DNA of 64,000 nucleotides from an uncultured virus (IMG/VR IMGVR_UViG_2806310815_000005) (taxonomy: Duplodnaviria; Heunggongvirae; Uroviricota; Caudoviricetes): IMG/VR virus record IMGVR_UViG_2806310815_000005; one strand, 5' to 3'. The notes below the pieces were generated by a model, which saw only the letters and a program-made list of their open reading frames with translations, was not told the DNA's origin and made no database searches. Below are positions 7,240 through 52,467 of this stretch, piece after piece (position 1 is the first letter of the stretch; each line of letters begins with the position of its first letter). The translations under genes and the position numbers were made by a program.

Positions 7240-7704
7240 TATCTTAAAAATATTTCTATTGTGTCTAAAATCAGTTCTCTTCTTTGTTGTTTTGTTATTG
7301 TTCCTACTTTCTTAAACGACTTTCTAAACTCTTTTAAAACGTGTTGTTTGTATGTTTTTGTAACCGTTATGTTTATATTTTCGTCGGTTTCGTACACTTG
7401 TATATCTAGAGGGTGTTTCGAGTGCTCCCAATACACCCAGCCTAAAGCCGTTTCTTGAAGTAAGTCATCCATCACTTAGAAGTTTTCAATAAGTTTAAAA
7501 ATTCTGTAGCTTCTTTTAAGAGTTCTGTGGCCTCATTAGATAATTTTTCAAACTTGTCATTCTCACCTTTATAGGTATCTTTTAATATCTCACCTATTGT
7601 TTCAAAATCAGGTTTAATCAGTCCTTGATCTTTTAACCAGGGTACTAGTTCGGTCTTAACTAATCTTGTTAAGCCTTCTTTTCTGTAATCTATATTTTCC
7701 ATAA

Positions 7705-8091
7705 TTAAAACTTTTTACCGTTCTTTTTTACTCTGTTACCTACTTGATGATCAGGACGAGATTTATTAAAATTTCTTTTAGCTTCCATAATCTCTCCCGC
7801 ATTTTTACACCCAACAGCTCCTAACAAATCAAAAATTCTAATTAATGCATCTACAAGTTCAACATCTACCATACGATACTGTGGGAGCTTGTCATCCATT
7901 AAGTCTTTTCTATAACCTTCTGTTGCTTCAGATACTTCTGTGGTAATTAAATTTAGTTTTGTACCTATTACATAAGGTGTGAATTTGTGGTTTAACAGAC
8001 TTTCTCCTGTTTCAGGATCATTCCACCAACCTGCTTCTACATTCTTACTGTGTATATCTTTTACTAATTTATTTATTTGTTCTGCTGTCAT
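7705..8091 (-). CDS. MazG-like nucleotide pyrophosphohydrolase
   Basis: LITTEVSEATEGYRK...VELVDALIRIFDL...KRNFNKSR, the all-alpha NTP-PPase signature. Confidence 0.75.
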   Translation of the reverse strand: MTAEQINKLVKDIHSKNVEAGWWNDPETGESLLNHKFTPYVIGTKLNLITTEVSEATEGYRKDLMDDKLPQYRMVDVELVDALIRIFDLLGAVGCKNAGEIMEAKRNFNKSRPDHQVGNRVKKNGKKF

Positions 8092-10293
8092 CTATATAAT
8101 TTTCTAAAGCTGTTATTAATCCTTTATAATCTGTGTAATCTTCGTTTGGATTTACTTCGATATAAGTGTGGAGTATTTTATTTATTTCTTGTCGTCGATT
8201 CATTTCTGCCGCCAATCATTTAATCTGTTTATAATTTCTATTGTTCCTGAATCAAATATCTCAGCATCCTCTAGCATAATTTGCTCGGCAAAGTATAGAA
8301 ATAACTGTTCTGTAATACCCCAATCTTCTGAATCTTCATCTAACAATCTAATGAAATCAACTCTTTCATCAAAAGGGATGTTATTGATAACATCTGCATA
8401 AGTCTCCTCTTCTGTTCTACGGTAAACCGCATTTAAGAGTTTTTCTCCCTCTTTTGTATATCTAAACTGTGTCATAAATCTTTGTATTTTTAAACATTCC
8501 TATTCTAATTGCCTCGTCAAACATTTCCACGAGCTCTACTTTAATTTCTTCTGTTGTAAAAATTGAACTTAGTTCTTTATTGGCAACCTCATTTTTTAAA
8601 AACGGGTACAATTCGTTTAATAAGTATTCACCGTTATCCCAAATATCTCCACATACACCTTCTTCGTAGAAAGCTAATCCTGGCATATAAAATTCCTCTT
8701 TTTCATTTATATTAGCTGATAAATGATACGTATCACAATCGGATACAATGTCTGTATATTTAAACATATTAATATTCGTATTTCATTAAAAATTCTTCTA
8801 TATCTTTTGGTTCTGCAAAGTACAAAATAGTTTTGAATCTTTCAAGTAAATCTGCTTGAATTATCGATAAATTCTCTTCCTCGCTTGGTTTATATCCAAA
8901 CTCTTCAATAGCGTCTTCTTCTGTATATAAGTTTAAATTTTCACGAGCATATTCTATAACATCTTCATCTCTAAACTCATCTAAGTCTACATCTACTTCT
9001 ACCGTTGTTCTATACATCACCTTAACTATTTAAAATTTTATCTCTTTCAATCTGTTTCTTTTCGAGTTCAATTAGATCTAATCTTACCCCTTCTAAATTA
9101 TTGTAAGCTACATCTATTATTTTTGGGGCAACTACATCTCCTTCTTTTAATCGTTCAATTACAAAGAATATAGCTTGCAGTTTGTTTCTTATTTTTTCAA
9201 ATTTTGACTCTCTCATATTTTAGGAGGTAGTATTTAGTTTAATTGAATTAAACCTTGTGAATTTACATAAATGTTCGGTGCTTTCTCAGCTATCTTTTCG
9301 TAATTATCTATTGTTTTAAACAATTCTTCTACTGTTTCACACTCTTTTAAACCCTCATCTAAAAATCTTTTTAAACATTGTTTTAATGTGGGGTGGTATG
9401 TAGAGTTTTCTGTTGTATACTCGTCTCCTTTTTTAAATTTTCCGTTTTTATCGTCTTTGTCGCGCACTTTTGTTGTAGTTATTTTTAACTCCCAACTATT
9501 TGTTGATGCGTCTACTGTTGCGTATTCGTTTAACTTTATCATAATTCAATTAGTTCTATTAATTCACTCTTCTGTTGATTAATCACTGTATGTTGGAATC
9601 TTTCGTAGAATTTAAAATCTTCTGTTTGGTACTTATGAATATAAAACCCGTGTTTTTGAAGCTCATAAATATCCTCTTTTGGAAACCAATTATATAAATC
9701 CTCTAAATTATCTACGGCAGAAATATACCCAACTAATTCAGGATCAAAATCCATTTTCAAATCTCTGTTTTTGCAGAAATTAAACTTATTATGTATAAGT
9801 CCTGTAAACTCACCTTTAAAATCATACCATAATCCTTGCTGCGTATCAATATTATTTACTCTATAAAAATCCATTATTTAATATAAATTTTTTGCGGTAA
9901 TTCTCCAAAAACAAACTTCGTTACAAAACAAAGCCAAACATCAAAACTAAAATGCTCGGAAGTTAAGAGATAATCACCACCATTGTTACTTTCTTTTTCA
10001 AATGTAAGAACAAAATCACAATCTTCAAAAGGCTTTAACGAGATTTTAACTCTTACTCTGTCTCTACCTTGCGCGATAATATCTAGCATAGTATCTGCTC
10101 CTGCGACCATTTCTAAGTCTTCTTTATCTCCTTCCCAATTAGGTAAGTCTATATACCACCTGTTCTCTAAATCTCTGTAAAATGTGAAATATTCTTGCAT
10201 TCTAGTCTTTTATCATATTAATTCTGAAATTGACCATCTTATCTTCAAAAATAATTTTCTCTAATTCATCCATAGTATTGTTTTTAAATTAAA

Positions 10294-14018: not shown

Positions 14019-15095
14019 CTACTTCAACAACCGTGCCACACCTCTTTTCCTAACTACTTTGGCAGCATTTTCATCTGCATTACCACTATGAGAGCATTTC
14101 ACACATTTAAACGTCTCTTGGTTTGGTCTGTTTTCTTTTGATATATGTCCACAATTGTTACATTCTTGTGAGCTGTACTTAGCATCTACTTTTGTTACAT
14201 TTGTTTTATATTCTAAATAGCTTGAAAATTTACTCCAACTAACATCTGATATTGATTTTGAATAGTTTTTATTTTGTATCATTTTAGAAACTTTCAAATC
14301 TTCTAAAAATATGTATTGATAATTACTAGCCAAATCATTTGAAATCTTGTGTAAATAGTCTTCTCTAACTCTTTGTATTTTCAAATATAGCTTTTTAATT
14401 CTCTCCACTTGTTTATACCAATTGTTAGAACCTTTCTTTTTACGTGATAAAGATCTTTGTGCAACTCTTAGTTTCTTTTTAAATTTCTTAGCTGTATTTA
14501 TGTTTTCAAAATATTGCCCATCAGATGTTACTAAAAAATGTTTTATACCTAAATCACAACCTATTTTTGCTTGATTCTCGCATTTTGGTCTTTCATAGTC
14601 TGTAACAATTTGTAAGTACCATCCATCTGCTTTTTTAACTACTCTCGTTAATTTTATGTTTCCATTTACTTCCCTGCTTTTAAATATTTTTATTAATCCT
14701 ATTTTAGGCAATTTAAACTTATTCTTTTCAAATCTTAATATATTACTATTTTGTTTAAATTCTATACTTTTCCATTTTCTTTTAGATGCCCAATGTGGTT
14801 TTGATACCTTAACTCCTCTTTTTAAATCTTTAAAAAACTTATCATAACCTTTGTAAAGCCTCTCTATAACTCCTTGAAGCGTTTGTGCATTTACATTTGA
14901 AATCCATTTACACTCTTTTTTAAGTTCAGGTAGCTGTTTTGACAAATCATACTTACTTAACTTTACACCTTTAGAATAAGCTATTTCTTTTACTTCTTTG
15001 GCTAGATTATATATACATCGAGTTGTATTCAGATGCTCTATGAATATATTTTCTAAAGTTTTAGTAGTCTTTATTTTAAAGGTGTATGTTATCAA
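14019..15095 (-). mobile_element. tnpB: TnpB RNA-guided endonuclease (IS200/IS605/IS607 family); no tnpA seen
   Basis: N-terminal RCIYN HTH; RuvC residues GCDLG, FLEDL and NADENAA; zinc finger SQECNNCGH...FKCVKC. Confidence 0.9.
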
Positions 15096-17210: not shown

Positions 17211-17594
17211 TTATGTGGCATTAAAAGTCACCACTTCTATCACGTTCTGAAACTGCTTGAACTTCTGCAATCATATCAGTCCATCTTTTTTCAGCTTTAT
17301 CACATATACAGCAAATCACATATTTTCTACCGCAATATTCACAATTAGATAAATCACCAGATAAATTCTTTTTTACCTTGTCTGTTTTCCATTGTAATTC
17401 CATAACTTTATTGTATGTTTCAATATCTAATTGTAAACATTCTTCCTTTGTCAAAATTCTGCTCATAATAATTAACGCCACATAACACTGTATATAAGGC
17501 ATTGCCTCTGTGGTCTTTTTTAAAGTTTATACTAATTTTAATCTTTCATTCATTCTATTAAGGTTCGTGAGGGCAACGCCTCATATACTAAACG
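17211..17594 (+). mobile_element. Solitary integron-like gene cassette
   Basis: Starts at G|TTATGTGGC (17210-17219) and ends in an attC-like site whose left core GCCACATAAC (17477-17486) is the exact reverse complement. It contains one antisense ORF. Confidence 0.8.
17221..17502 (-). CDS. Cassette ORF, small Cys-rich (CxxC...CCxC) protein; probable start ATG 17466
   Basis: ORF track. The upstream extension lies inside the attC arm, so MSRILTKEE... is the more plausible start. Confidence 0.55.
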   Translation of the reverse strand: MPYIQCYVALIIMSRILTKEECLQLDIETYNKVMELQWKTDKVKKNLSGDLSNCEYCGRKYVICCICDKAEKRWTDMIAEVQAVSERDRSGDF

Positions 17595-17600
17595 TTACAC
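17477..17600 (+). repeat. attC-like recombination site
   Basis: ACATAAC-act-GTATATAAGGCATTGCC ... GGCAACGCCTCATATAC-taaac-GTTACAC. Confidence 0.8.
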
Positions 17601-21751: not shown

Positions 21752-22543
21752 TCATATTGGTGAATTTACTTCATTTAATATATCTTTTGAAACGTGTGTA
21801 TAGATTTCCGTAGTTTTTGAATTCTTATGCCCTAATACTAACTGTATTGTTCTTAAATTTTCTTTTGACTCAACAAGACTCGTCGCATAGCTGTGACGGA
21901 TAATATGTGGATTAATGTCTAAATACTTGTGAGATATGTTTCTTAAACTACTATAAGTGTACTTACCGCCAGTGCCTTCAAATAAAAATTGTTTTGGTTT
22001 GTACTCTTTAAAATACTCTCTTAATAAAATTAAATTATTTTTTGAAAAAGGTACATATCTATCTTTGTTAAATTTAGAATTTCTAACTAATAACAACATT
22101 CTACTTGAGTCTATATCTTCTATTTTTAAATTTAACACTTCAGATGCTCTTAAACCTGTACCAAACATCAAAGATAAGATAGCTTTATGTTTTAAATTAA
22201 CTATCTTGTTAATTTTCAGTATTAATTTTTGTTTCTCTATTACCCTTGGCAACTTTCGTTGTTTTCTAGGTCGATTAAAATCTACCTTGTTGTACTTCTT
22301 TCCTAAAACTTTAGAGTATAAGAATTTTAAACTACTTAAAACTTGATTTTGCTGAGAAACAGAAGAAAATCTATAATTCTTAATATAATTTTCAAAATCA
22401 GAAGAATTTAAATGGATGTACTGCTTCTCTATTTGACAAACAAATTCAGATATATAGTTTAAATATATACGTTGTGTATTTTCGGCGTAATTTAAAAATA
22501 TAAGTTTTTCACTACAAATCTTTATAATTTTTCTATTTTTCAT
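21752..22543 (-). CDS. Tyrosine recombinase (integron-integrase-like / XerD family), putative cassette integrase
   Basis: N-terminal SAM-like region (YAENTQRIY...SQQNQVLSSLKFLY). Catalytic R (GLRASE), K (KFNKDR), HxxR (HIIRHSYAT), LGH and Y (TTEIYTHV). Lies directly beside the cassette array. Confidence 0.9.
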   Translation of the reverse strand: MKNRKIIKICSEKLIFLNYAENTQRIYLNYISEFVCQIEKQYIHLNSSDFENYIKNYRFSSVSQQNQVLSSLKFLYSKVLGKKYNKVDFNRPRKQRKLPRVIEKQKLILKINKIVNLKHKAILSLMFGTGLRASEVLNLKIEDIDSSRMLLLVRNSKFNKDRYVPFSKNNLILLREYFKEYKPKQFLFEGTGGKYTYSSLRNISHKYLDINPHIIRHSYATSLVESKENLRTIQLVLGHKNSKTTEIYTHVSKDILNEVNSPI

Positions 22544-22574
22544 ACTCTAAAGTCTTTGTTTATAGGTGTTTAGA

Positions 22575-22604
22575 TATTAGTTATCGATATATAGTAGTTA
22601 TGCA
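22575..22604 (+). promoter_or_regulatory. Putative attI-like primary integration site
   Basis: ...tatcgatatatagtaG|TTATGCA. This G|TT core has no palindromic arm, lies 54 bp from the integrase start, and begins the first cassette. Confidence 0.6.
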
Positions 22605-22918
22605 CAAGCAAAAGAGCCTGTGCCTTCAACGTCATATCCTACCCATCTACTCACAAGAATAAATTTTACACCTTTAGGGGCTTTTTTCAACTTTCTTCTA
22701 AACGCTTTTACACTTCTACAACTTTGGTGCGAGCTATAACCTTTCTCACCTGCTTTGGGGTTTTGTTCCCATCTATTAGTATTATAATTAAACCACCATC
22801 CATTTTCAAAGGTCGTAAAGCCCATAAATCGGTAATTTATTCTTGTTCTCTTTTGTGCTTTATATTTAAGTTTCATCTTGTCTAATTTTTGCCAGATGCA
22901 TAACAAAGTGTATAGCAA
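22598..22918 (-). CDS. Cassette 1 ORF, hypothetical (probable start ATG 22876)
   Basis: ORF track; its stop codon is the reverse complement of the TTA in the G|TTA core. Confidence 0.6.
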   Translation of the reverse strand: MLYTLLCIWQKLDKMKLKYKAQKRTRINYRFMGFTTFENGWWFNYNTNRWEQNPKAGEKGYSSHQSCRSVKAFRRKLKKAPKGVKFILVSRWVGYDVEGTGSFACA

Positions 22919-22991
22919 ATAGCCTATTAATATTCAGTTCTTAATTCGTTGGTTCGTGCTTCGGCTACTTGCCATACACAAACCGTTCTAA
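22897..22991 (+). repeat. attC-like site 1
   Basis: TGCATAAC-aaa-GTGTATAGCAAATAGCC ... GGCTACTTGCCATACAC-aaacc-GTT. The left core is complementary to the cassette start GTTATGCA. Confidence 0.85.
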
Positions 22992-23027
22992 CAAATAGCA
23001 AAAATGCCTGCGCTAAGTTTGATCTAC

Positions 23028-23252
23028 TTATTTGTCTAAAGTTCCTATATGGTAAGAATCGATGTTATCAAACCAATAGTTTATCCCTTTTTCACTTAAA
23101 GTACGATCGATGTCTATTTGGCAAAGACAAGCATCGGGATTCACATCTTTATAAGCTTCGTCTCTTACCGGCTCGAACTTAAAGTGTTCTTTAAACTGTC
23201 TTGGTGTTTCAATTTCTTTTTCTCCTTCTTTTATTACTATCTTCTGGCATAT
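23028..23252 (-). CDS. Cassette 2 ORF (74 aa, ATA start or start-loss pseudogene)
   Basis: Manual translation: (ATA)CQKIVIKEGEKEIETPRQFKEHFKFEPVRDEAYKDVNPDACLCQIDIDRTLSEKGINYWFDNIDSYHIGTLDK*. There is an in-frame TAA two codons upstream of the ATA. Confidence 0.45.
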   Translation of the reverse strand: MCQKIVIKEGEKEIETPRQFKEHFKFEPVRDEAYKDVNPDACLCQIDIDRTLSEKGINYWFDNIDSYHIGTLDK

Positions 23253-23343
23253 AGTTTATCATTTTAAGTTATTACTGTTTCAGATTTTCCATACTTCCTT
23301 TTTGCGTTACACGCTTAGCCTTCGCTTATATTTTTACTACTTG

Positions 23344-23700
23344 CAAGAACTGTGTATAACAACCATACGTCTAAGGTATAAATCACTTTAATAGTCTTTT
23401 TTTGGCTGTCTCCATCTAATACCTTCCCATTCCCCGAAAACTAAATATCGTTCATTATCGTTACAAACCTTTTCAGCACTATCTCTTCTTACGTTCTTTC
23501 TTTCTCCATTAGGGTAAACTAACCAGCATTTATAATTTTCTCCTTCTGTAGATTTTAATCTTGCTCCTATTTGTAAAGCTTCTAGTATCATATTTTGATA
23601 ATCACTCATAATTCTGTTTTTAAAAGCCAAAAAAATTAATGGCTTGGTTATTAATTAATCGTTATTGTTGTAGTACGGTTGTTATACAATTCCGTTAGCA
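23344..23700 (+). repeat. attC-like site 2, expanded (about 355 bp) with an ORF in its loop
   Basis: CAAGAAC-tg-TGTATAACAACCATAC (from 23344) pairs with GTACGGTTGTTATACA-attcc-GTT (to 23696). Confidence 0.7.
23388..23630 (-). CDS. Hypothetical ORF located between the arms of attC site 2
   Basis: ORF track, 80 aa; probable start MSDYQNMILEAL. Confidence 0.55.
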   Translation of the reverse strand: MAFKNRIMSDYQNMILEALQIGARLKSTEGENYKCWLVYPNGERKNVRRDSAEKVCNDNERYLVFGEWEGIRWRQPKKDY

Positions 23701-23701
23701 A

Positions 23702-23959
23702 CTATTTGCCAATACGAATAGTATCGCCAATTTTAAAAGTCTTGTCACTATAAAATTTAAACCCTACATTATTTTCACCATCAGTAATTCTATATTCGTA
23801 TTTGCACTTTTCTTCTTCAAGTTCATATACATAGTACACTATCATTTTATCAGAGTCGGTTACTTTATCATTTGGTACTCTTGTGTCATCACAAGAAAAG
23901 AAAACAGTTGCTAACAAAGTATATAGTGTATAGCTAATAAGTGTTTTAAATCGTTTCAT
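23702..23959 (-). CDS. Cassette 3 ORF, probable lipoprotein
   Basis: Signal peptide ending VFFS-C (lipobox-like). The signal peptide is encoded by the attC3 left arm. Confidence 0.55.
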   Translation of the reverse strand: MKRFKTLISYTLYTLLATVFFSCDDTRVPNDKVTDSDKMIVYYVYELEEEKCKYEYRITDGENNVGFKFYSDKTFKIGDTIRIGK

Positions 23960-24039
23960 TTGTTTATCTATTTAAGTTATTAATAATTCAAAGTTCAAGC
24001 GTTTTTGGTCGCTACACACCATATACAACCACGTTGGCA
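23906..24039 (+). repeat. attC-like site 3
   Basis: AGTTGCTAAC-aaa-GTATATAGTGTATAGC ... GCTACACACCATATAC-aaccac-GTT. The left core is the exact complement of the cassette start GTTAGCAACT. Confidence 0.85.
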
Positions 24040-24045
24040 GTAATA

Positions 24046-24270
24046 TTAACGTCTAAACTTACCACCAACAACTTGTTCTAGTTTTCTTAAATCTTCTGGC
24101 TCTAAAACTATGGTCTGTCCGTTTTTGCTAACCGCTATTATTTGGTCGGTAAAACCAGCATATTCCTTGTTAGTTGTATTTCCGCACAGCTTCACCATAC
24201 TACTTCCAACATCACCTATAAATAATGCTTTGTTTTGTTCCGTTTCTAAGTCTATTTTATCCCAATTCAT
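24046..24270 (-). CDS. Cassette 4 ORF, hypothetical
   Basis: ORF track, 74 aa, ending 12 bp from the G|TT core. Confidence 0.6.
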   Translation of the reverse strand: MNWDKIDLETEQNKALFIGDVGSSMVKLCGNTTNKEYAGFTDQIIAVSKNGQTIVLEPEDLRKLEQVVGGKFRR

Positions 24271-24307
24271 TGTTTTATAATTTAAAAGTTTATTAATATT
24301 TACACAG

Positions 24308-24335
24308 CACTATTCATAGCTGCATCCCGTTAGTC
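24308..24335 (+). repeat. Right half of a degenerate attC-like site 4
   Basis: cactattcatagc-tgcatccc-GTTAGTC; no matching left arm or AAC core found. Confidence 0.45.
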
Positions 24336-24509
24336 GTAATAACGCCATTCAGTAATTGTATCTTTTTCTTGAGTTATTACTTCAACTGGGTATTTTATAG
24401 CCCACGTAGCACCCCACCCTTTTTGCCACTCTAATTTATATATTTTGCCATCTTCGTCAGGTAACAATGCATATAGCCCATTTCGTCCCTCAACGTACCA
24501 TATGCTCAC
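24330..24509 (-). CDS. Cassette 5 ORF (59 aa, GTG start)
   Basis: Manual translation MSIWYVEGRNGLYALLPDEDGKIYKLEWQKGWGATWAIKYPVEVITQEKDTITEWRYYD*. The stop overlaps the G|TTA core. Confidence 0.45.
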   Translation of the reverse strand: MSIWYVEGRNGLYALLPDEDGKIYKLEWQKGWGATWAIKYPVEVITQEKDTITEWRYYD

Positions 24510-24517
24510 CGTTAGGG
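24459..24517 (+). repeat. Short attC-like site 5
   Basis: AGGTAAC-aat-GCATATAG ... CCATATGC-tcacc-GTTAGGG. Confidence 0.6.
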
Positions 24518-24521
24518 TGCA

Positions 24522-24785
24522 TTAGGATATTTCAAATTGGGTTTGTGCAATCCCAAGCTCTTTAACTATCCCTAACTTTTCTTTTCTGTTTACTAAGTTT
24601 GTTGCGCTTTCCCCACTTCCGTAGGTGCAATTACTTTTCAAATCAGTTGCAGTCCATACAAAAGCACCACTACTTTTTTGATGCTTGCCTGCATTAGTTC
24701 TACGGAAGTTACTTAGTTCTAATCCTAAATCTTTTTTTATTCTTTGTTTAAGTCTTTCAAACATAATAATAACGCCACATAACAA
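24522..24785 (-). CDS. Cassette 6 ORF, hypothetical (probable start ATG 24764)
   Basis: ORF track; the upstream extension lies inside attC6. Confidence 0.6.
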   Translation of the reverse strand: MLCGVIIMFERLKQRIKKDLGLELSNFRRTNAGKHQKSSGAFVWTATDLKSNCTYGSGESATNLVNRKEKLGIVKELGIAQTQFEIS

Positions 24786-24898
24786 CGTATATAAAACATT
24801 GCTTTAGTGGTCTTTTGTTTAGTTAATTTATAATTCAATTCCTTGTGTTTATCTATTAAGTTTCGGCATACAACGTTTCATATACAAATACGTTGTAA
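24774..24898 (+). repeat. attC-like site 6
   Basis: GCCACATAAC-aac-GTATATAAAACATTG ... CAACGTTTCATATAC-aaatac-GTTGTAA; closely related to the site at 17477. Confidence 0.85.
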
Positions 24899-24907
24899 AC
24901 AATAAAA

Positions 24908-25078
24908 TTATTCAGTGCTTACAACAAAGAAGAAATGTTCATCTTCATCTCTACTTCTTACAGCTATACTATGGCTAATTATTTTATATCCTAATTTTTC
25001 TATTCTCTCTATTTCTTCTTTTAAAATGTAATGGGAGCAGTTGGGGTGTGCTTTAAATCTTATTATTCTGTCAGTCAT
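24908..25078 (-). CDS. Cassette 7 ORF (56 aa)
   Basis: Manual translation MTDRIIRFKAHPNCSHYILKEEIERIEKLGYKIISHSIAVRSRDEDEHFFFVVSTE*. Confidence 0.55.
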   Translation of the reverse strand: MTDRIIRFKAHPNCSHYILKEEIERIEKLGYKIISHSIAVRSRDEDEHFFFVVSTE

Positions 25079-25087
25079 AATTTTACA

Positions 25088-25224
25088 GTTTATAACAAGG
25101 GCTATAATTCATACCCTTGTTAGGTTTATGCTTAATTCAATATTTTTCTTTCTATTCACTTATGTACAGTTTGATAGGTTCGTGCATCTAATACGCTACG
25201 ACACCATACCACCATACGTTCAGA
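25088..25224 (+). repeat. attC-like site 7 (array end, arms poorly paired)
   Basis: ATAATTTTAcaGTTTAtAAC matches the complement of the cassette start GTTGTAAACAATAAAATTAT at 17 of 20 positions. The loop has the GGTTCGTG motif and the site ends catac-GTT. Confidence 0.65.
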
Positions 25225-25437
25225 AGAATTGACCTGCGGAAGTATCAAACAAATATACATTATCTTCTTCTACAACTATATTATCATTTGATTTTCCTAT
25301 TTCAAAAGCTCCGTGCCTATCTTCGTGACTAATCGAGTAGCCGTATTTTTTACAAACATTTTTTATATCCTCAAAAACTGTTTTAAACCTTCGCTTGTAT
25401 ATGCAAACTGTCTTTTATTATAGTCCCGATTCTTCAT
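25220..25437 (-). pseudogene. Frameshifted small ORF flanking the array
   Basis: MKNRDYNKRQFAYTSEGLKQF.. stops early. The shifted frame continues EDIKNVCKKYGYSISHEDRHGAFEIG...AGQFF*. Confidence 0.4.
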
Positions 25438-33900: not shown

Positions 33901-36588
33901 TACCGTAAGGAATAATTAGTGTTAATGTTCTGTTAAATTAAAGTACCGTCATCTAAAATTGCTTCAAGCCCTTTTGCGTACTTAATAGCTTCTTTTATAT
34001 CTGTAAAACTTTCAATATTACAATCATTAGTGCTGTTATCAAAAGCGTTCCATTTCTTGTTTTCAAACCAACACCCACCTTTAATTTCTTTATCTTCAGG
34101 GTGTTCGTAAAATTCGCAAGTGTGGTTATTCAAAATTTCTTGTAAATGTTGTTTTGCTTTTTCTCCGATAAGTATCATAACTCTATTCTTTTTAAATTAC
34201 ATAGTAAATATACAAAACATTTACCGCCGCATAAAATATAAATTGTTAAAAATATCATAAAATAAAACCCCATACAACAAAAAATCCCCTATCAAAACAC
34301 TACTAAAGATAGAGGATTAAAAACACAATTATGAAACACCTTTATTTAGTGCCTACTGTAAGACTGTATATAGTTTCAATACAGCTATCTAAATTTCGTC
34401 ACAAGGTTAAAGGCTTTACCTCAACTATCAAAAGATATTAAAATTCATCTCCTTTCTCTCCAAAGAATATTATAAAATCATTTGGGTTACTATTATTCCA
34501 TACTTTAAATACATCCCCGTAGTCTACATCTTTACCTATGTGCAGTACATTTTCCCACTCTTCGGGTCTTTCGGATGTTTTTTCAACTATAAAGTCAGTC
34601 ATAAGTATCTTTTTAAATACTGTTTTCTTTTTGTCTTTTCTTTGCTGTTCTATTGTGGTGTATTTTGTCATTGTTTCTTATTGTTTTTTGTACTTCTTAA
34701 CGGCTTTTTTTAGCTCGTCGAATTTATCGTAGGTTATTAATTGGCAACCTACTTTAATCCCCTTCTCTGTTAGTTCCGCTTCATAACTGTCTGTTATTTG
34801 TACTTTTACTGTTTCTTTGTATACATCTATTGCGGCGATAAATTCGGGAAATGATAATACTTTAAATAAATATTTATCTACATCATTTTTATTACCCCCT
34901 ATAAATTCTTTACCGTTGTATATAATGTACGTGTTTCTTTCGTCTGTTGAATAGCCTTGTAATATTCTGTATTTTGTGCTTTCATATACTTTTAACCCTT
35001 TACCCTCAGCCATTTGTAGTATTACCTCAGCTTGTAGTTGTGTCGGTTTGTAAATTGCTATTTTTTTCCATTTGTGTTTTATTTTTTGTAAATGTATAAA
35101 TTGTTTTCTTTTGCGGCAAGTTTTTAACATAAAATTATAGGCTAGGTAAAACTTTATAACCTCCATCCACATAATTAATACCTTGTACTAATTACATACC
35201 CTCCCTAACCTATACTTTAAAAACTACTACTCAAACAATTCTACTATTATTGTGATTCCTGTTCCGCATTTACTCTGTAAATATACTATTATTTTTTCAT
35301 TGTTGATTTACTTTTAACTTTTGTTTAACTGTTTGTTTTAGCGGCATTTTTAATACCCTCTTTAACTGCTTCAAAAGCTTGCACCGTCCTATCATTATTG
35401 AAAATAGGTGTCATTCTATAAGATTGCATTAACTCATAAAATTCCTGGCTGTTTAGATATTCTTCCATAGCTTAACAATTCTTTAGATCACTATACAACT
35501 GTTCTAAATTGTAGTTTGCAATTAATTCTTTTCTTGTGTCGGTCTTACTTTGTGCCGATTGTTTTAAAGCTTCCTGTTTGCTTATTTGTGCTTTTAGGTA
35601 GTCTTTGTACTGTTGTTTGTCTTGTTGATTGTACGTCATTTTATTTGCTGTTTTGATTGTTTTAAAAATAGATAATACTAAGTAGTAACGCCATCACTAT
35701 CGGGCTTCTATCGGGTATATTTAAACCTTTAGCCTTTAGTAGTTATCTATATTGTAAAGTTATGGTGCATTTAGAAACAACCATACCAAGGTTCAATTTC
35801 TTCGCCATCAGCTACTATTTCTGCGTAAGTCCAATACTTACTTTCAAGGTCGTTTACACTTTCGATGAATTTTTCAGCTTCTTCTCTTGTATCGAAAAGT
35901 TTAGGTTTAATCCAGTCAGCACCTTCACGACCTTTACCTCTTGCTACTATTACTATAAATGATTTCATAAAATAAAAACTCACCATAACACTGTATAAAA
36001 TCAAGTGGGGTTATGTGCTAATTTTAACCACTTCGGCTGTTTAATTTAGTTTTTGCAAGTCGGAATGTGTTAGCCGTTCAATCCCCCACCTGCTTTTATA
36101 CTTTAACGTTAATTCTTTTTTGTTTTCTGCTGTGTTAAAGGTATGCTAATTCTTAGCAAAGATTAGTATCGATACTTGTACCTCTGCTTCATACTTTGTT
36201 AATCCTCCGTAATGATTAGAAGTGCCATTAATTCCTACCCCATAATTATTTTTTGCCTCCTTCCATACGTAAACATCATTTAAACCGTATAAATTTTTAA
36301 AGTACTGTTGTTTTCTTCTTCCGTCGATTGTCATAACTATTAATTTAAGCGTTTTCTAATTTATTATTTTTAGGATTGAAGTATCTTACCGTCTGACCTA
36401 TAACTTTATTGTTACGGTGTGTATTTTTCATTGGTGCAGTTATCATATACCGCCCATCGCTTTGCTTATACACCTTAAAATCTTTCATTGTTTGTCCGAA
36501 AAACTTTAAAGATTTACGTGTGAAAAAATGCGGTGATGTCTCGCTTGATAGTCTTTTAATGTCGTAGATTGTCATTTTAGTAGTGTTT

Positions 36589-38200: not shown

Positions 38201-38347
38201 CTAGTTATAGCTATTTAATTCTAAAGTACATTCTAAACATAGTAGGTCGCCATAAATTTCGTTATTTATATCAACTTTACTATTATCAAAATCACTCTTA
38301 CAACAAGGGCAATTTTTTATATCTTTGTTTAGGTTTTGTGCCTTCAT
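38201..38347 (-). CDS. 48-aa Cys-rich protein, copy 2
   Basis: Manual translation MKAQNLNKDIKNCPCCKSDFDNSKVDINNEIYGDLLCLECTLELNSYN*. Confidence 0.6.
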   Translation of the reverse strand: MKAQNLNKDIKNCPCCKSDFDNSKVDINNEIYGDLLCLECTLELNSYN

Positions 38348-39506
38348 AATGTTTTTATTTTGGACTAAGATACAAATAAATACCTTAGCCCGTTGTTAAG
38401 TTTCTATTAATACCCTTGTGCTTTTTTTATCAAAGCTTTAGCCGGAGCTTTTTTAACCTTTGCTTTGGCAGTTATTTCAATGTCCTGATAAGCATAAGGC
38501 AAACTGTCTTTTATATGCTGCTCAATGTTTTCTAGTCGGTTGGTGTCTGATAGATCAAACCCATCTTCTACCCAATTTCTTGATACTTCAACGTCAATTT
38601 CAATAGTCCATTTAAATGATTCCATAGTGTTTTATTTTAGTTTGTTATTGTTAAATTATTTACCGCCCAAAGGATGATTAAACCCCATCCAATAAGCCAA
38701 ATTAAACCTAGTAAAATTTGATAACTGTATAATTTAAGTACGTTTTTCATAGGTGTAAATTTAAAACAGTTTAACCTAAACCACTGTTAAAGGTGTGTTA
38801 AAACTAAAGACTATTATAAATAAAAGGTAGTTTTTCAGTCCCTCCACCATCTTTGAGCCTTACAAGATTATATTTAAAGTTATCTATTGGCTCCAAAGTC
38901 TTTAAAGCGTTATTTCTTATAGAATAGAATATTTCAAACCAATTACACCCCATAGCCACTGAATTAGCTGCATTTGTAGCAACATAAAACCAATAACTTT
39001 CACCTGTAGCTTCATAAACTACACGTCCTATTGTTTTTAAATTGTCAAAAGTAGGTTTTAATGCTCTTAATTTAGATACTTTCATCTTAGTAGTGTTTTA
39101 AATTAATATTAAGTAAAGATAAGGTTTTACCGTCTAACCTTAAAGGACTTTAACAAAGTTTTAACTAAAATTCATCGTTCCTGTACCATAGCGTACACCT
39201 TCTACTTTTTCTAATCTATCTAGCATACTTTGAGGTAAAAACATATTTGTATATTTTAACTCTTCAAAAAAGTATTTAAATTCACTGTAAACTTTTTTAA
39301 TAGTCTTTTTCTTATAGTTAAAATCCATAGAAAAGTAAATTTTATTTGTCTCCACGTGTACCAATAAAGACAATACTCCTATTTTAGTATTTATATGATC
39401 TACTCTTAATTCACTCATTTTTGGGATACTCATAACATTATATTTAAATTAATAACAAAGTAAAAATAGCTAGTTTATACGATACTAGCAAACGTTTAAC
39501 AAAATT

Positions 39507-51639: not shown

Positions 51640-51847
51640 GTTGTTTAATAAACGTATCTATCATTCCGTGAGCCATTTTCTCATATGTTCTTATTTCATA
51701 TCCATTTTGTTGACACATTTTAATTGCGGAAAGTAGCTTCCCTATTTCCTGCGTTGTTGGTTTTGAAATTTCTAAATAATTTTTATTAGGTTTAATCCAA
51801 TAATCTAATTGTTTTTCTACACTCATTGTTGTTTTTGCATTTCTCAC
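51626..51847 (-). CDS. Hypothetical cassette ORF (probable start MSVEKQ)
   Basis: ORF track; begins just after the G|TT core on the minus strand. Confidence 0.5.
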   Translation of the reverse strand: MRNAKTTMSVEKQLDYWIKPNKNYLEISKPTTQEIGKLLSAIKMCQQNGYEIRTYEKMAHGMIDTFIKQPMEV

Positions 51848-51981
51848 AACGTGTTTGTATATGAAAAGTAACGTGTTGATTTGCGTTATTTTTCAGCCGT
51901 TGTTGTTTGTTGCGTGATAAACTTTTCTCTCGGGTTATCACTTGCCGAAGTTATTTTTTATATACGGTGTTGTACGTAGGC
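51843..51981 (-). repeat. attC-like site, reverse polarity
   Basis: Plus strand: CTCACAAC-gtgttt-GTATATGAAAAGTAAC ... GTTATTTTTTATATAC-ggt-GTTGTACGTAGGC. Confidence 0.75.
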
Positions 51982-52048
51982 TTTTTATTTTCAGATTGTT
52001 GTTTATCAGTCCAAATATTTTTCTAAATTAGTCAAAAACTTTTATATT

Positions 52049-52264
52049 ATGTCAAACATAAAATTACACTCGATAGTAAAACTGAAAGCTGAACCTAATT
52101 CGGGTGAAATGGTTGTCGAAGATATCAAATCATCTTATCGTAACTTTCCACACGCTACATCTGAAAATCCTGTTGTATTCGTTAAATTTTGGAATCCTAA
52201 AACGCACAATTACGAGTTTGCTCAATTCTACTCACAAGTCCTTATAGTTGTTGATAAAGAGTAA
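52049..52264 (+). CDS. Small YodC/DUF2158-like protein inside a cassette
   Basis: IVKLK....EMVVE...V.V.FW......F....L pattern. Confidence 0.5.
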   Translation: MSNIKLHSIVKLKAEPNSGEMVVEDIKSSYRNFPHATSENPVVFVKFWNPKTHNYEFAQFYSQVLIVVDKE

Positions 52265-52408
52265 ACTTTTTCTCTTTCCATTAAGTCAGTTACGTAATCA
52301 TACATCATTTTAAAACTTGTTACGTTGTCAGTTTTATTCAGTATTGTTTTTATTATGTAACTGATTGTTTCTTTTTCTAATTTTTGTTCTGTGTTCATAC
52401 GTTTTTTA

Positions 52409-52467
52409 GCTTACGTACAACGTGTTTGTATATGGCGCGTTTTAATGCGTTATATACTCTGTTGTGC
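52409..52467 (-). repeat. Short attC-like site, reverse polarity
   Basis: Plus strand: GCTTACGTACAAC-gtgttt-GTATATGGCGCGT-ttta-ATGCGTTATATAC-tct-GTTGTGC. The core is complementary at 12 of 13 positions to GTTGTACGTAGGC at 51969. Confidence 0.8.

Follow-up and report, generated by a model that had tools for sequence, protein, structure and literature searches.

The 64,000-nucleotide (nt) stretch of DNA analyzed here, called the window below, belongs to an uncultured virus (IMG/VR record IMGVR_UViG_2806310815_000005). Its region 21752-25224 very probably holds an integron-like platform for the site-specific exchange of gene cassettes, which is served by a short recombinase related to Xer and IntI proteins and is carried by a marine phage of 141 kb. 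The system is not a canonical integron: the recombinase lacks the insertion found in IntI proteins and misses the family cut-offs, and the cassette genes are antisense to the integron polarity. In the following, R″ denotes the outer box of a hairpin site with the AAC core and R′ the outer box with the GTT core, and loci used for comparison carry L numbers. The recombinase gene, the attI-like junction and the array of small open reading frames (ORFs) are arranged as follows.

21752-22543, minus strand: short tyrosine recombinase, Xer/IntI-like, 263 amino acids (Pfam Phage_integrase, 6.9e-29, and Phage_int_SAM_4, 2.3e-10)
22544-22599, minus strand: attI-like junction, AAC core at 22599-22597 followed by TACTATATAT, 56 nt before the ATG of the recombinase (G|TT at 22597|22598 on the plus strand)
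22598-22987, minus strand: cassette 1, hairpin 22898-22991 (R″ AAC 22987-22985, R′ GTT 22904-22902) and ORF 22598-22876 (92 amino acids from ATG)
22988-23696, minus strand: cassette 2, R″ AAC 23696-23694, left arm at about 23688-23670, right arm at about 23372-23354, R′ GTT 23350-23348
23697-24035, minus strand: cassette 3, hairpin 23909-24039 holding the ATG and the signal-peptide-like start of ORF 23702-23959 (85 amino acids)
24036-24331, minus strand: cassette 4, hairpin 24204-24335 holding the start of ORF 24046-24270 (74 amino acids)
24332-24894, minus strand: cassettes 5 and 6, hairpin 24777-24898 and ORF 24522-24764 (80 amino acids from ATG), doubtful site 24459-24517 overlapping ORF 24330-24509 (59 amino acids)
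24895-25121, minus strand: cassette 7, small 36-nt hairpin 25090-25125 and ORF 24908-25078 (56 amino acids)
25122-25220, minus strand: outermost core, AAC 25220-25218 with a left arm only, which resembles the family consensus

The initial annotation had named a short tyrosine recombinase, and the catalytic set RKHRHY is indeed complete (R132, K157, H213, R216, H239, Y248) and invariant in eight relatives. Relatives were found in viral contigs, eight at first and then in at least 172 stretches, from which 80 viral loci with 43-56% recombinase identity were kept as the family set. Three of the loci (L001, L003, and L004) have long rows of small ORFs, separated by hairpins, that precede the recombinase gene; none of these ORFs resembles the cassette ORFs of the window. 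The hairpins open with an AAC core and a bulge of 4-6 nt, continue with a stem of about 20 bp and a variable loop, and close with a spacer of 1-3 nt in front of the GTT core. Since an early motif, AACGKNNKKGTRTAT, caught six places only, we used covariance models, R1 built from 15 sites and R2 built from 101 sites, of which 100 come from contigs other than that of the window. With R1 (E ≤ 1e-3) 239 distinct sites were identified in the 80 viral loci, and 238 of them are on the recombinase strand. Sites upstream of the recombinase number 228 (493 kb searched), compared to 11 downstream (678 kb searched), and at least one site is present in 50 of the 60 loci having at least 1 kb of upstream DNA.

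The fold of these sites is conserved. In the alignment of the 101 sites (A4) 95.1% of the cells are paired vs. 69.2% after shuffling, and the covariation score is 0.655 vs. 0.170; none of 500 shuffles reaches either value. A4 was fitted to the model, which favors the structure, and slid controls carrying the same bias score 0.06-0.13. Compensatory changes occur in 18 of the 20 stem pairs, and three stem positions are conserved G.T pairs, one of which is present in 99 of the 101 sites. In 193 of 213 sites the recombinase strand forms a more stable hairpin than the other strand. Size classes are approximately 54, 93, and 131 nt. The sites thus have the features of attC-type sites, namely imperfect inverted repeats, outer boxes with AAC and GTT, inner boxes, an unpaired spacer, a variable loop and strand asymmetry. 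At the two outermost positions of the outer box just 58-60% (approximately) of the sites are paired, as would be expected of hybrid boxes. A reading of the conserved left arm as a promoter was dropped, because the arm is found in both orientations relative to genes and is half of a covarying stem. At a distance of 7-10 kb downstream from the recombinase gene, L041 (18262-20370) and L071 (8944-11611) carry another cluster of sites with a common orientation, which suggests more than one array per genome.

The flanks of the hairpins reveal to which segment they belong. The R′ flank is complementary to the R″ flank of the next site at 5.60 of 8 positions, with 47.7% of the pairs reaching at least 7 (n = 149). 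Compared with its own site the R′ flank scores 3.24 of 8 and no pair reaches 7 (n = 213); the values are 3.49 for the previous site, 3.33 for the next but one and 3.17 for random pairs (1.0% reaching at least 7). The pairing extends to position −12 and includes a nearly invariant G.T pair at −8 (148-149 site pairs). Static hairpins are expected to pair with their own flanks, which is not seen; therefore, the flanks belong to the segments between the sites. Each of these segments bears both halves of one extended box at its ends, which is a classical hallmark of integron cassettes, and such complementary ends would result from inserting a circle with one complete site. The initial annotation had stated that a cassette starts with the complement of the inverse core belonging to its own site, and the family data agree with this.

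The ORFs of the window array (56-92 amino acids) lie upstream of the recombinase gene and are co-directional with it. Since all are encoded on the minus strand, each hairpin is located on the 5′ side of its ORF. Read on this strand, every intergenic region opens directly after the stop codon with an AAC core and the conserved left arm. R2 detects five sites inside 21752-25224 and five outside, and a direct alignment of the arms adds three features: the wide site of cassette 2 (23696/23350), the 36-nt hairpin (25090-25125) and the unpartnered left arm (25220). The inverted pairs reported previously, GTTATGCA (22597-22604) with TGCATAAC (22897-22904) and GTTAGCAACT (23694-23703) with AGTTGCTAAC (23908-23917), are present, as is the imperfect pair between 22985-23004 and the reverse complement of 23331-23350 (16/20). 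Inverted repeats of 8-10 bp within 300 nt are expected by chance at 30% GC, at an estimate of several per 5 kb. Because such short pairs alone are not above chance, they were tested with the models from the relatives, with a blind partner search and in the wider family, and all three tests go beyond chance.

For the blind search the reverse complement of the 12 nt after a GTT was compared to the 12 nt preceding each AAC over the following 1.6 kb, which gives about 41 candidates per site. The predicted next core was the unique best partner for six of the eight sites that have a defined next core; one site gave a tie and one failed (binomial tail about 6e-9). The partner pairs of the window, including the one with the attI-like junction, have the wobble at −8. 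The hairpin of cassette 1 (R2 58.9 bits, E 7.8e-11) has an R′ flank that fits the flank before the attI AAC at 9/14 positions plus one wobble (own R″ flank 3/14; unique best of 40). For cassette 2 the R′ flank fits the next R″ flank (22987) at 10/14 positions plus three wobbles (own flank 1/14; unique best of 37), and the alignment score of its arms, 27, is the top score in the window (next-best GTT 12). The two arms are 349 nt apart with ORF 23388-23609 between them; this wide site may be a loaded loop or a nested insertion. Cassette 3 (R2 35.6 bits, E 2.3e-5) fits the next core at 11/14 positions plus two wobbles (own flank 6/14; unique best of 37) and cassette 4 (R2 32.8 bits, E 1.1e-4) at 9/14 plus two wobbles (unique best of 43). 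For cassette 7, whose hairpin has a DNA fold of −7.7 kcal/mol and just 13.2 bits with R1, the R′ flank fits the next core (24894) at 9/12 positions plus the −8 wobble (unique best of 47). The tie was found for 24777-24898 (R2 37.9 bits, E 6.5e-6). The site that failed, 24459-24517, is weak with R2 (24.1 bits, E 0.011) and may be spurious. The outermost core has no right arm within 460 nt (best score 10), and R2 finds no further site from there up to 35.9 kb; this core probably represents the remains of a site that decayed at the far end of the array.

The model R2 recovers four array sites at E values from 8e-11 to 1e-4 and one weak site. The count of about seven cassettes bounded at G|TT holds: complementary ends and shared blocks that end at C|GTT (AACG, see below) support it. 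The unit with 24459-24517 is doubtful, and the outermost core is a half site. Two frames of the region have no ATG, GTG or TTG start. One, with 72 codons, follows R′ of cassette 2 (23028-23243, minus strand), and its sole ATG lies in another frame just upstream of an A-rich run. The other has 66 codons (25221-25420, minus strand), and its TGA overlaps the AAC core at 25220. Both may be decayed or frameshifted cassette genes.

The attI-like site that had been proposed next to the recombinase gene is well supported by the relatives. An AAC-TA..TATA motif is located beside the recombinase gene in 56 of the 69 family loci examined; 55 of these 56 carriers have it 35-109 nt ahead of the recombinase match (the exception is L058 with 14 nt). 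The conserved motif, AAC-TAYTATATAT, is not a hairpin. In L001, L002, L003, and L007 the recombinase gene and the DNA downstream of it are 84-92% identical at the nucleotide level, and the similarity ends upstream of one AAC. The sequences shared by L009/L065, L012/L017 and L061/L062 likewise start at the junction AAC. Related phages carry unrelated arrays, each of which starts exactly at the attI-like junction; L009 and L065 share both flanks, yet enclose arrays of 7.9 and 2.5 kb. The hairpins have the same AAC core and a TATAT-containing arm at a spacing similar to that in the junction motif. The TATAT-rich right side of the junction resembles the inner arm of the hairpins and, judged by this likeness, could be the duplex counterpart of the folded site.

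Complementarity cannot separate a crossover on the AAC side from one on the GTT side, but breakpoints can. As breakpoints we used the 23 ends of blocks of at least 150 nt and at least 90% identity that are common to different arrays. Eleven of these ends coincide with AACG in each of the two loci, against a background of 6.6% per locus; one is at the attI AAC, one is at GTTA in a backbone block and 10 are elsewhere; none is at GTTA inside an array. A whole cassette of 315 nt is 100% identical in L011 (6583-6897) and L067 (2131-2445) with TAACG at both sides, and another one in L065 (7533-7951) matches L066 (8002-8420) and is bounded by AACG on both sides. Identical cassettes occupy different positions in different arrays. 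According to these shared-block breakpoints the unit consists of hairpin, ORF, stop codon, flank and AAC, and the crossover falls within the AAC or next to it (G|TT when read on the plus strand). The initial annotation had suggested that relatives should differ in their cassettes exactly at G|TT. The swaps of arrays at the junction and the AACG block ends in the wider family agree with this.

Of 146 cassettes from relatives, 35 have an ORF whose start lies within the hairpin. In the roughly 131-nt class the loop and the right arm hold the start region plus some 20 codons, with GTT translated as valine. In 26 of the 146, the TAA contained in the next TAAC core serves as the stop codon. In the 131-nt class the hairpins together with the first 20-25 codons are 91-94% identical across unrelated ORF bodies (L011:6891-7030 and L067:8145-8284; L034:106-239 and L069:8564-8698); since these hairpins with their codons are shared, different proteins start with the same leader peptide. 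Pfam matches (E ≤ 1e-4) were obtained for 13 of the 146 ORFs, 11 of them above the curated cut-offs. They include two N6/N4 and one C5 DNA methylase, an RNA ligase, an Rv2179c-like exoribonuclease, YopX and GNAT proteins, as well as DUF7446, DUF7448 (twice), a short EF-Tu-like stretch and two weak hits. No family was found for the other 133 ORFs of the relatives or for any of the 10 cassette ORFs of the window, for which Pfam was searched with eight and PHROGs with 10.

From these sequences we infer that the platform is active in this phage and works on single strands. The recombinase would excise a cassette as a circle, thereby reuniting two flanks into one complete hairpin. It would put the circle back through a crossover within the AAC or next to it, with the attI-like site, another hairpin or, now and then, a secondary AAC elsewhere in the genome as the target. 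The substrate would be a folded single strand, as in integrons. Because the cassette genes face the recombinase and run with the surrounding phage genes, they might be expressed by the phage's own transcription and not from a cassette promoter. The cargo would be accessory and counter-defense functions of the phage.

Several observations weigh against this interpretation. Hairpin modules are common to different ORF bodies, with breaks just after the GTT or inside ORFs (L011:6891-7030 with L067:8145-8284, L061:8790 with L062:2863, and at 22900 in the sequencing run X6). A single crossover point at the AAC does not explain such breaks, and the shared modules may reflect a second kind of exchange. 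Similar families of sites are seen in classical integrons. The hairpins lie on the coding strand and often contain the start of the gene, and G.U pairs are stable in RNA, so that a role at the RNA level could explain the strand bias. Ten of the 60 loci with upstream DNA have no site at the threshold used, and of the window sites one did not pass the partner test and another is only half a site. The recombinase lacks the insertion that is credited with single-strand recombination in integron integrases, according to the accessible part of PMC7790495. In the collections searched no relative has a recombinase identity above about 56%, and a metagenome scan gave, besides the contig of the window itself (L088), nothing above 55%; therefore gain and loss of cassettes in this lineage cannot be dated. 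Four public sequencing runs were examined at the level of contigs; X1 is probably the source of the window, X5 gave three tiny pieces, and X6 and X7 gave short pieces of low depth. Among these low-depth contigs there is no circle, recombination product, empty site or join across a cassette. Contigs of X6, which is from another study, are identical to the window and end at 22604 (one contig), 22900 (one) and 22987 (two), positions that coincide with the three cores of cassette 1. Given a depth of 2-7x and no more than two contigs per position, these ends are a weak hint of variation in the population. Bins without coverage in X6 (23204-23737 and 24539-25072) prove nothing, and neither a joint from 26095 to 22870 (depth 2) nor a 36-nt skip (22924-22961) in the run contigs is interpretable.

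The hairpins might alternatively be elements of the transcript, such as terminators, processing or stabilizing stem-loops or leaders, shuffled by homologous recombination between repeats, and the recombinase would then be unrelated to them. Shuffling of this kind has reportedly been proposed for the promoter-stem-loop modules of T4-type phages. The location of the sites on the coding strand, which is also the strand favored by G.U-compatible pairs, fits this possibility, as do the ORFs starting within hairpins (35/146), the modules shared by unrelated ORF bodies and the sites of the window far from the recombinase, at 17.5, 36, 38, and 52 kb. Exchange between repeats would, however, keep the own flanks of a hairpin complementary, and instead the next site pairs (5.60 vs. 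3.24 of 8). Nor would it account for 11 of 23 block ends at one tetranucleotide, for 228 of 239 sites upstream of one recombinase family or for arrays that start at a conserved motif beside its gene. In bacterial relatives, moreover, the strand detected by the model is non-coding, and thus the fold is not tied to an mRNA. We therefore regard transcript elements as an unlikely explanation.

That the enzyme is a Xer-type resolvase or a lysogeny integrase acting on one double-stranded site (AAC-TAYTATATAT), with the array being a hitch-hiking hypervariable region, appears quite improbable, although 126-162 bits are obtained with the XerA, XerC, and XerD models, a XerA-like protein (4a8e) is the best relative of solved structure and the motif beside the gene does not form a hairpin. 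The variable array begins exactly at the AAC of the motif and ends with a cassette flank, the hairpins share the AAC core and the TATAT-containing arm at a similar spacing, and sites co-occur with the recombinase in 50 of 60 loci. The enzyme has no arm-binding domain, and Cellulophaga phage Ingeline has a separate long integrase besides a short one. We give even less credit, in fact hardly any, to a canonical bacterial integron or attC cluster acquired from a host. Integron pieces are described for 21 phages, including a Polaribacter phage, in the accessible text of PMC9892861; the recombinase reaches IntI1 at 34% identity, and the integron integrase model TIGR02249 is the second-best NCBIfam match. 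But the IntI insertion is absent, all curated cut-offs are missed and the recombinase family occurs in at least 172 viral stretches. In GC content the array (0.30-0.33) does not differ from the remainder of the phage. Its genes are oriented against the integron polarity and follow phage transcription, and the viral relatives of the enzyme (up to 56% identity) are closer to it than the bacterial ones (≤45%).

The 263 amino acids of the recombinase comprise the SAM_4 and the catalytic domain only. The best NCBIfam match is XerA_Arch/integron integrase with 162 bits vs. a cut-off of 220, and TIGR02249 reaches 148.5 bits in two stretches (cut-off 265). PRK15417 (112 vs. 435 bits), XerC (129 vs. 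335 bits) and XerD (126 vs. 330 bits) are missed as well, so that the recombinase is below every curated family cut-off, for IntI and Xer models alike. Compared to VchIntIA (2a3v), chain residues 206-264 have no counterpart, with residues 200-210 of the phage enzyme lying opposite. The missing region includes the I2 helix, which according to the accessible part of PMC7790495 is credited with turning IntI toward single-strand recombination. Due to the absent insertion and the missed cut-offs, the recombinase is outside the IntI family as defined. Among cultured phages tblastn found no relative of the recombinase above 34% identity. This value is reached by a 263-aa short integrase in the middle of the genome of Cellulophaga phage Ingeline_1 (L248, MT732435.1), which also encodes a long integrase. 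At 7500-9800 of this genome motifs like the left arm follow small ORFs before the short integrase, and there is no complete R2 site in that part. The sole R2 site (29.5 bits) is downstream of the short-integrase gene. Ingeline was therefore rejected as a cultured model of the subfamily, since it has no complete upstream site.

Outside the array, hairpin sites are present at four further places of the window.

17212-17600, minus strand: solitary cassette, hairpin 17480-17600 (R2 51.7 bits, E 3.7e-9), ORF within 17221-17502, ending at AAC 17212
35761-36114, minus strand: solitary cassette, hairpin 35983-36114 (R2 32.9 bits, E 9.8e-5), ORF within 35771-36004, ending at AAC 35761
38298-38398, minus strand: hairpin site far from the recombinase, detected with R2
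51844-52467, plus strand: inverted cassette, hairpin 51844-51975, ORF 52049-52264 (71 amino acids, plus strand), second short site 52415-52467

The R′ flank of 17212-17600 fits the flank before AAC 17212 at 11/12 positions plus the wobble, and for 35761-36114 the match is 9/12 plus the wobble. Both look like insertions at secondary AAC sites. The sequence after AAC 17212 begins with TATAC, like the attI-like motif. In the inverted cassette the R2 scores are 38.1 bits (E 5.9e-6) for 51844-51975 and 31 bits (E 2.8e-4) for 52415-52467. The R′ flank (GTT 51969) fits the flank before AAC 52419 at 10/12 positions plus the wobble and is the unique best of 26. The upstream 132-nt site heads the cassette, and the 53-nt site at its end has the same loop as the 54-nt class of other contigs. 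ORF 52049-52264 is the sole plus-strand ORF in its minus-strand stretch.

The window is part of a marine metagenome contig of 141 kb (L088) from a large phage. Over about 60 kb the genes of the window are encoded on the minus strand, among them genes for ribonucleotide reductase, thymidylate synthase, a UvsX-like recombinase, PhoH, a DNA methyltransferase and HNH endonucleases; a terminase gene on the plus strand is located at the right end. The GC content is 0.28-0.34 across the window. A comparison of region 21752-25224 with 50,697 phage records (blastn) yielded just three short matches of 69-102 nt, and Rfam at gathering thresholds gave no match in the window. An ORF of 358 amino acids at 14019-15095 (minus strand) matches PHROG transposase families (phrog_506, 1.7e-91) and represents a second kind of mobile element in the same phage.

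Beyond this phage, we lean slightly toward the view that a widespread family of short Xer-like recombinases without the IntI insertion runs integron-type gene capture, in large Bacteroidota phages and, with opposite gene orientation, in chromosomes of Bacteroidota and Ignavibacteria. The phage hairpin would double as a 5′ leader and sometimes supply the first codons, phages would trade ready-to-express accessory and counter-defense genes, and integron-style recombination would have arisen without or before the insertion. Integrons are regarded as a bacterial device of one enzyme clade, and detection tools require the special domain of that enzyme; arrays such as the ones described here are therefore invisible to these tools or are seen as orphan attC clusters. 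If our interpretation is correct, gene capture via folded recombination sites would be broader and older than thought, and the necessity of the IntI insertion for hairpin recombination could be tested with a natural counter-example. Phages would also own a dedicated exchange of small accessory genes, with methylases, RNA ligase and nucleases among the few that can be named, which bears on how they keep pace with host defenses. The cassette ORFs without a family would be a defined pool of mobile phage genes to screen.

Compared to the sedentary chromosomal integrons, the phage system has many features in common. The recombinase gene lies beside an attI-like start of the array and is divergent from the array direction on the plus strand, where the layout is classical: the integrase points leftward, followed by attI and by cassettes running rightward, each of which closes with a site and G|TT. 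The hairpins of both systems are imperfect, have AAC/GTT cores and comprise two paired boxes, a spacer that stays unpaired and a variable loop. Hybrid boxes occur in either kind of array, the two ends of a cassette together rebuild a single site, and in both systems families of similar sites are joined to unrelated small ORFs that are mostly of unknown function. The systems differ in the enzyme, which in the phage has 263 amino acids and no IntI insertion. The asymmetry of the sites comes from a bulge of 4-6 nt and conserved G.T pairs, whereas classically it comes from extrahelical bases. Integron cassettes have promoterless genes that face away from attI, with an attC after each gene, and are transcribed from a promoter on the integrase side; the phage genes are antisense and point toward the attI-like site and the recombinase. 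As a result the phage hairpin precedes its gene and often holds the start of it. The phage shows no cassette promoter logic, looks like a large lytic phage and has some cassettes at secondary sites.

Integron fragments, one complete integron and attC clusters without integrase (CALINs) were reported for 21 phages in the accessible text of Qi et al. (2023; PMC9892861). These phages resemble the one described here in that attC-type sites occur in virulent phages, including a phage of Polaribacter (Bacteroidota), and that methylases are among the cargo. The elements reported there are bacterial fragments, CALINs of at least two attC sites or, in a Shewanella prophage, a complete integron with a true IntI; a dedicated short recombinase family, an attI-like junction or family-wide arrays are not described in that part of the paper. 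IntegronFinder 2.0 reports integrons to be rare in Bacteroidetes in the text accessible. A search of one literature collection found no description of this recombinase family and layout. The initial annotation had called a phage-borne integron unusual, which holds for this family and layout but not for integron pieces in phages as such.

In the CTX-phi type of integration, Xer recombinases act on folded single-stranded phage DNA. Resistance modules bounded by Xer sites are known from Acinetobacter plasmids (PMC7399989, accessible part). Both Xer systems are similar to the phage system in lacking the IntI insertion and in having a hairpin-borne core or modules between short sites. They differ from it in employing the XerC/XerD pair of the host and dif-like sites of 28 bp, compared to one phage enzyme, sites of 54-131 nt and direct arrays.

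Bacterial relatives with 38-45% identity in Bacteroidota, Ignavibacteria and others (e.g., L207 and L189) have hairpins of the same model, and their genes adjoin arrays and not prophage ends. Here, the sites follow the recombinase gene downstream and occupy the opposite strand (25 of 26 hits), and in contrast to the phage arrays the classical order, gene then site, is found. The first cassette of L207 (10800-12800) contains two ORFs (299 and 196 amino acids), and its start is a perfect 10-nt complement of the inverse core of its own site. The comparison of the bacterial and the phage layouts indicates that the polarity of the sites toward the recombinase end is conserved and that the orientation of the genes is flipped in the phages, which would fit an expression by the unidirectional transcription of the phage.

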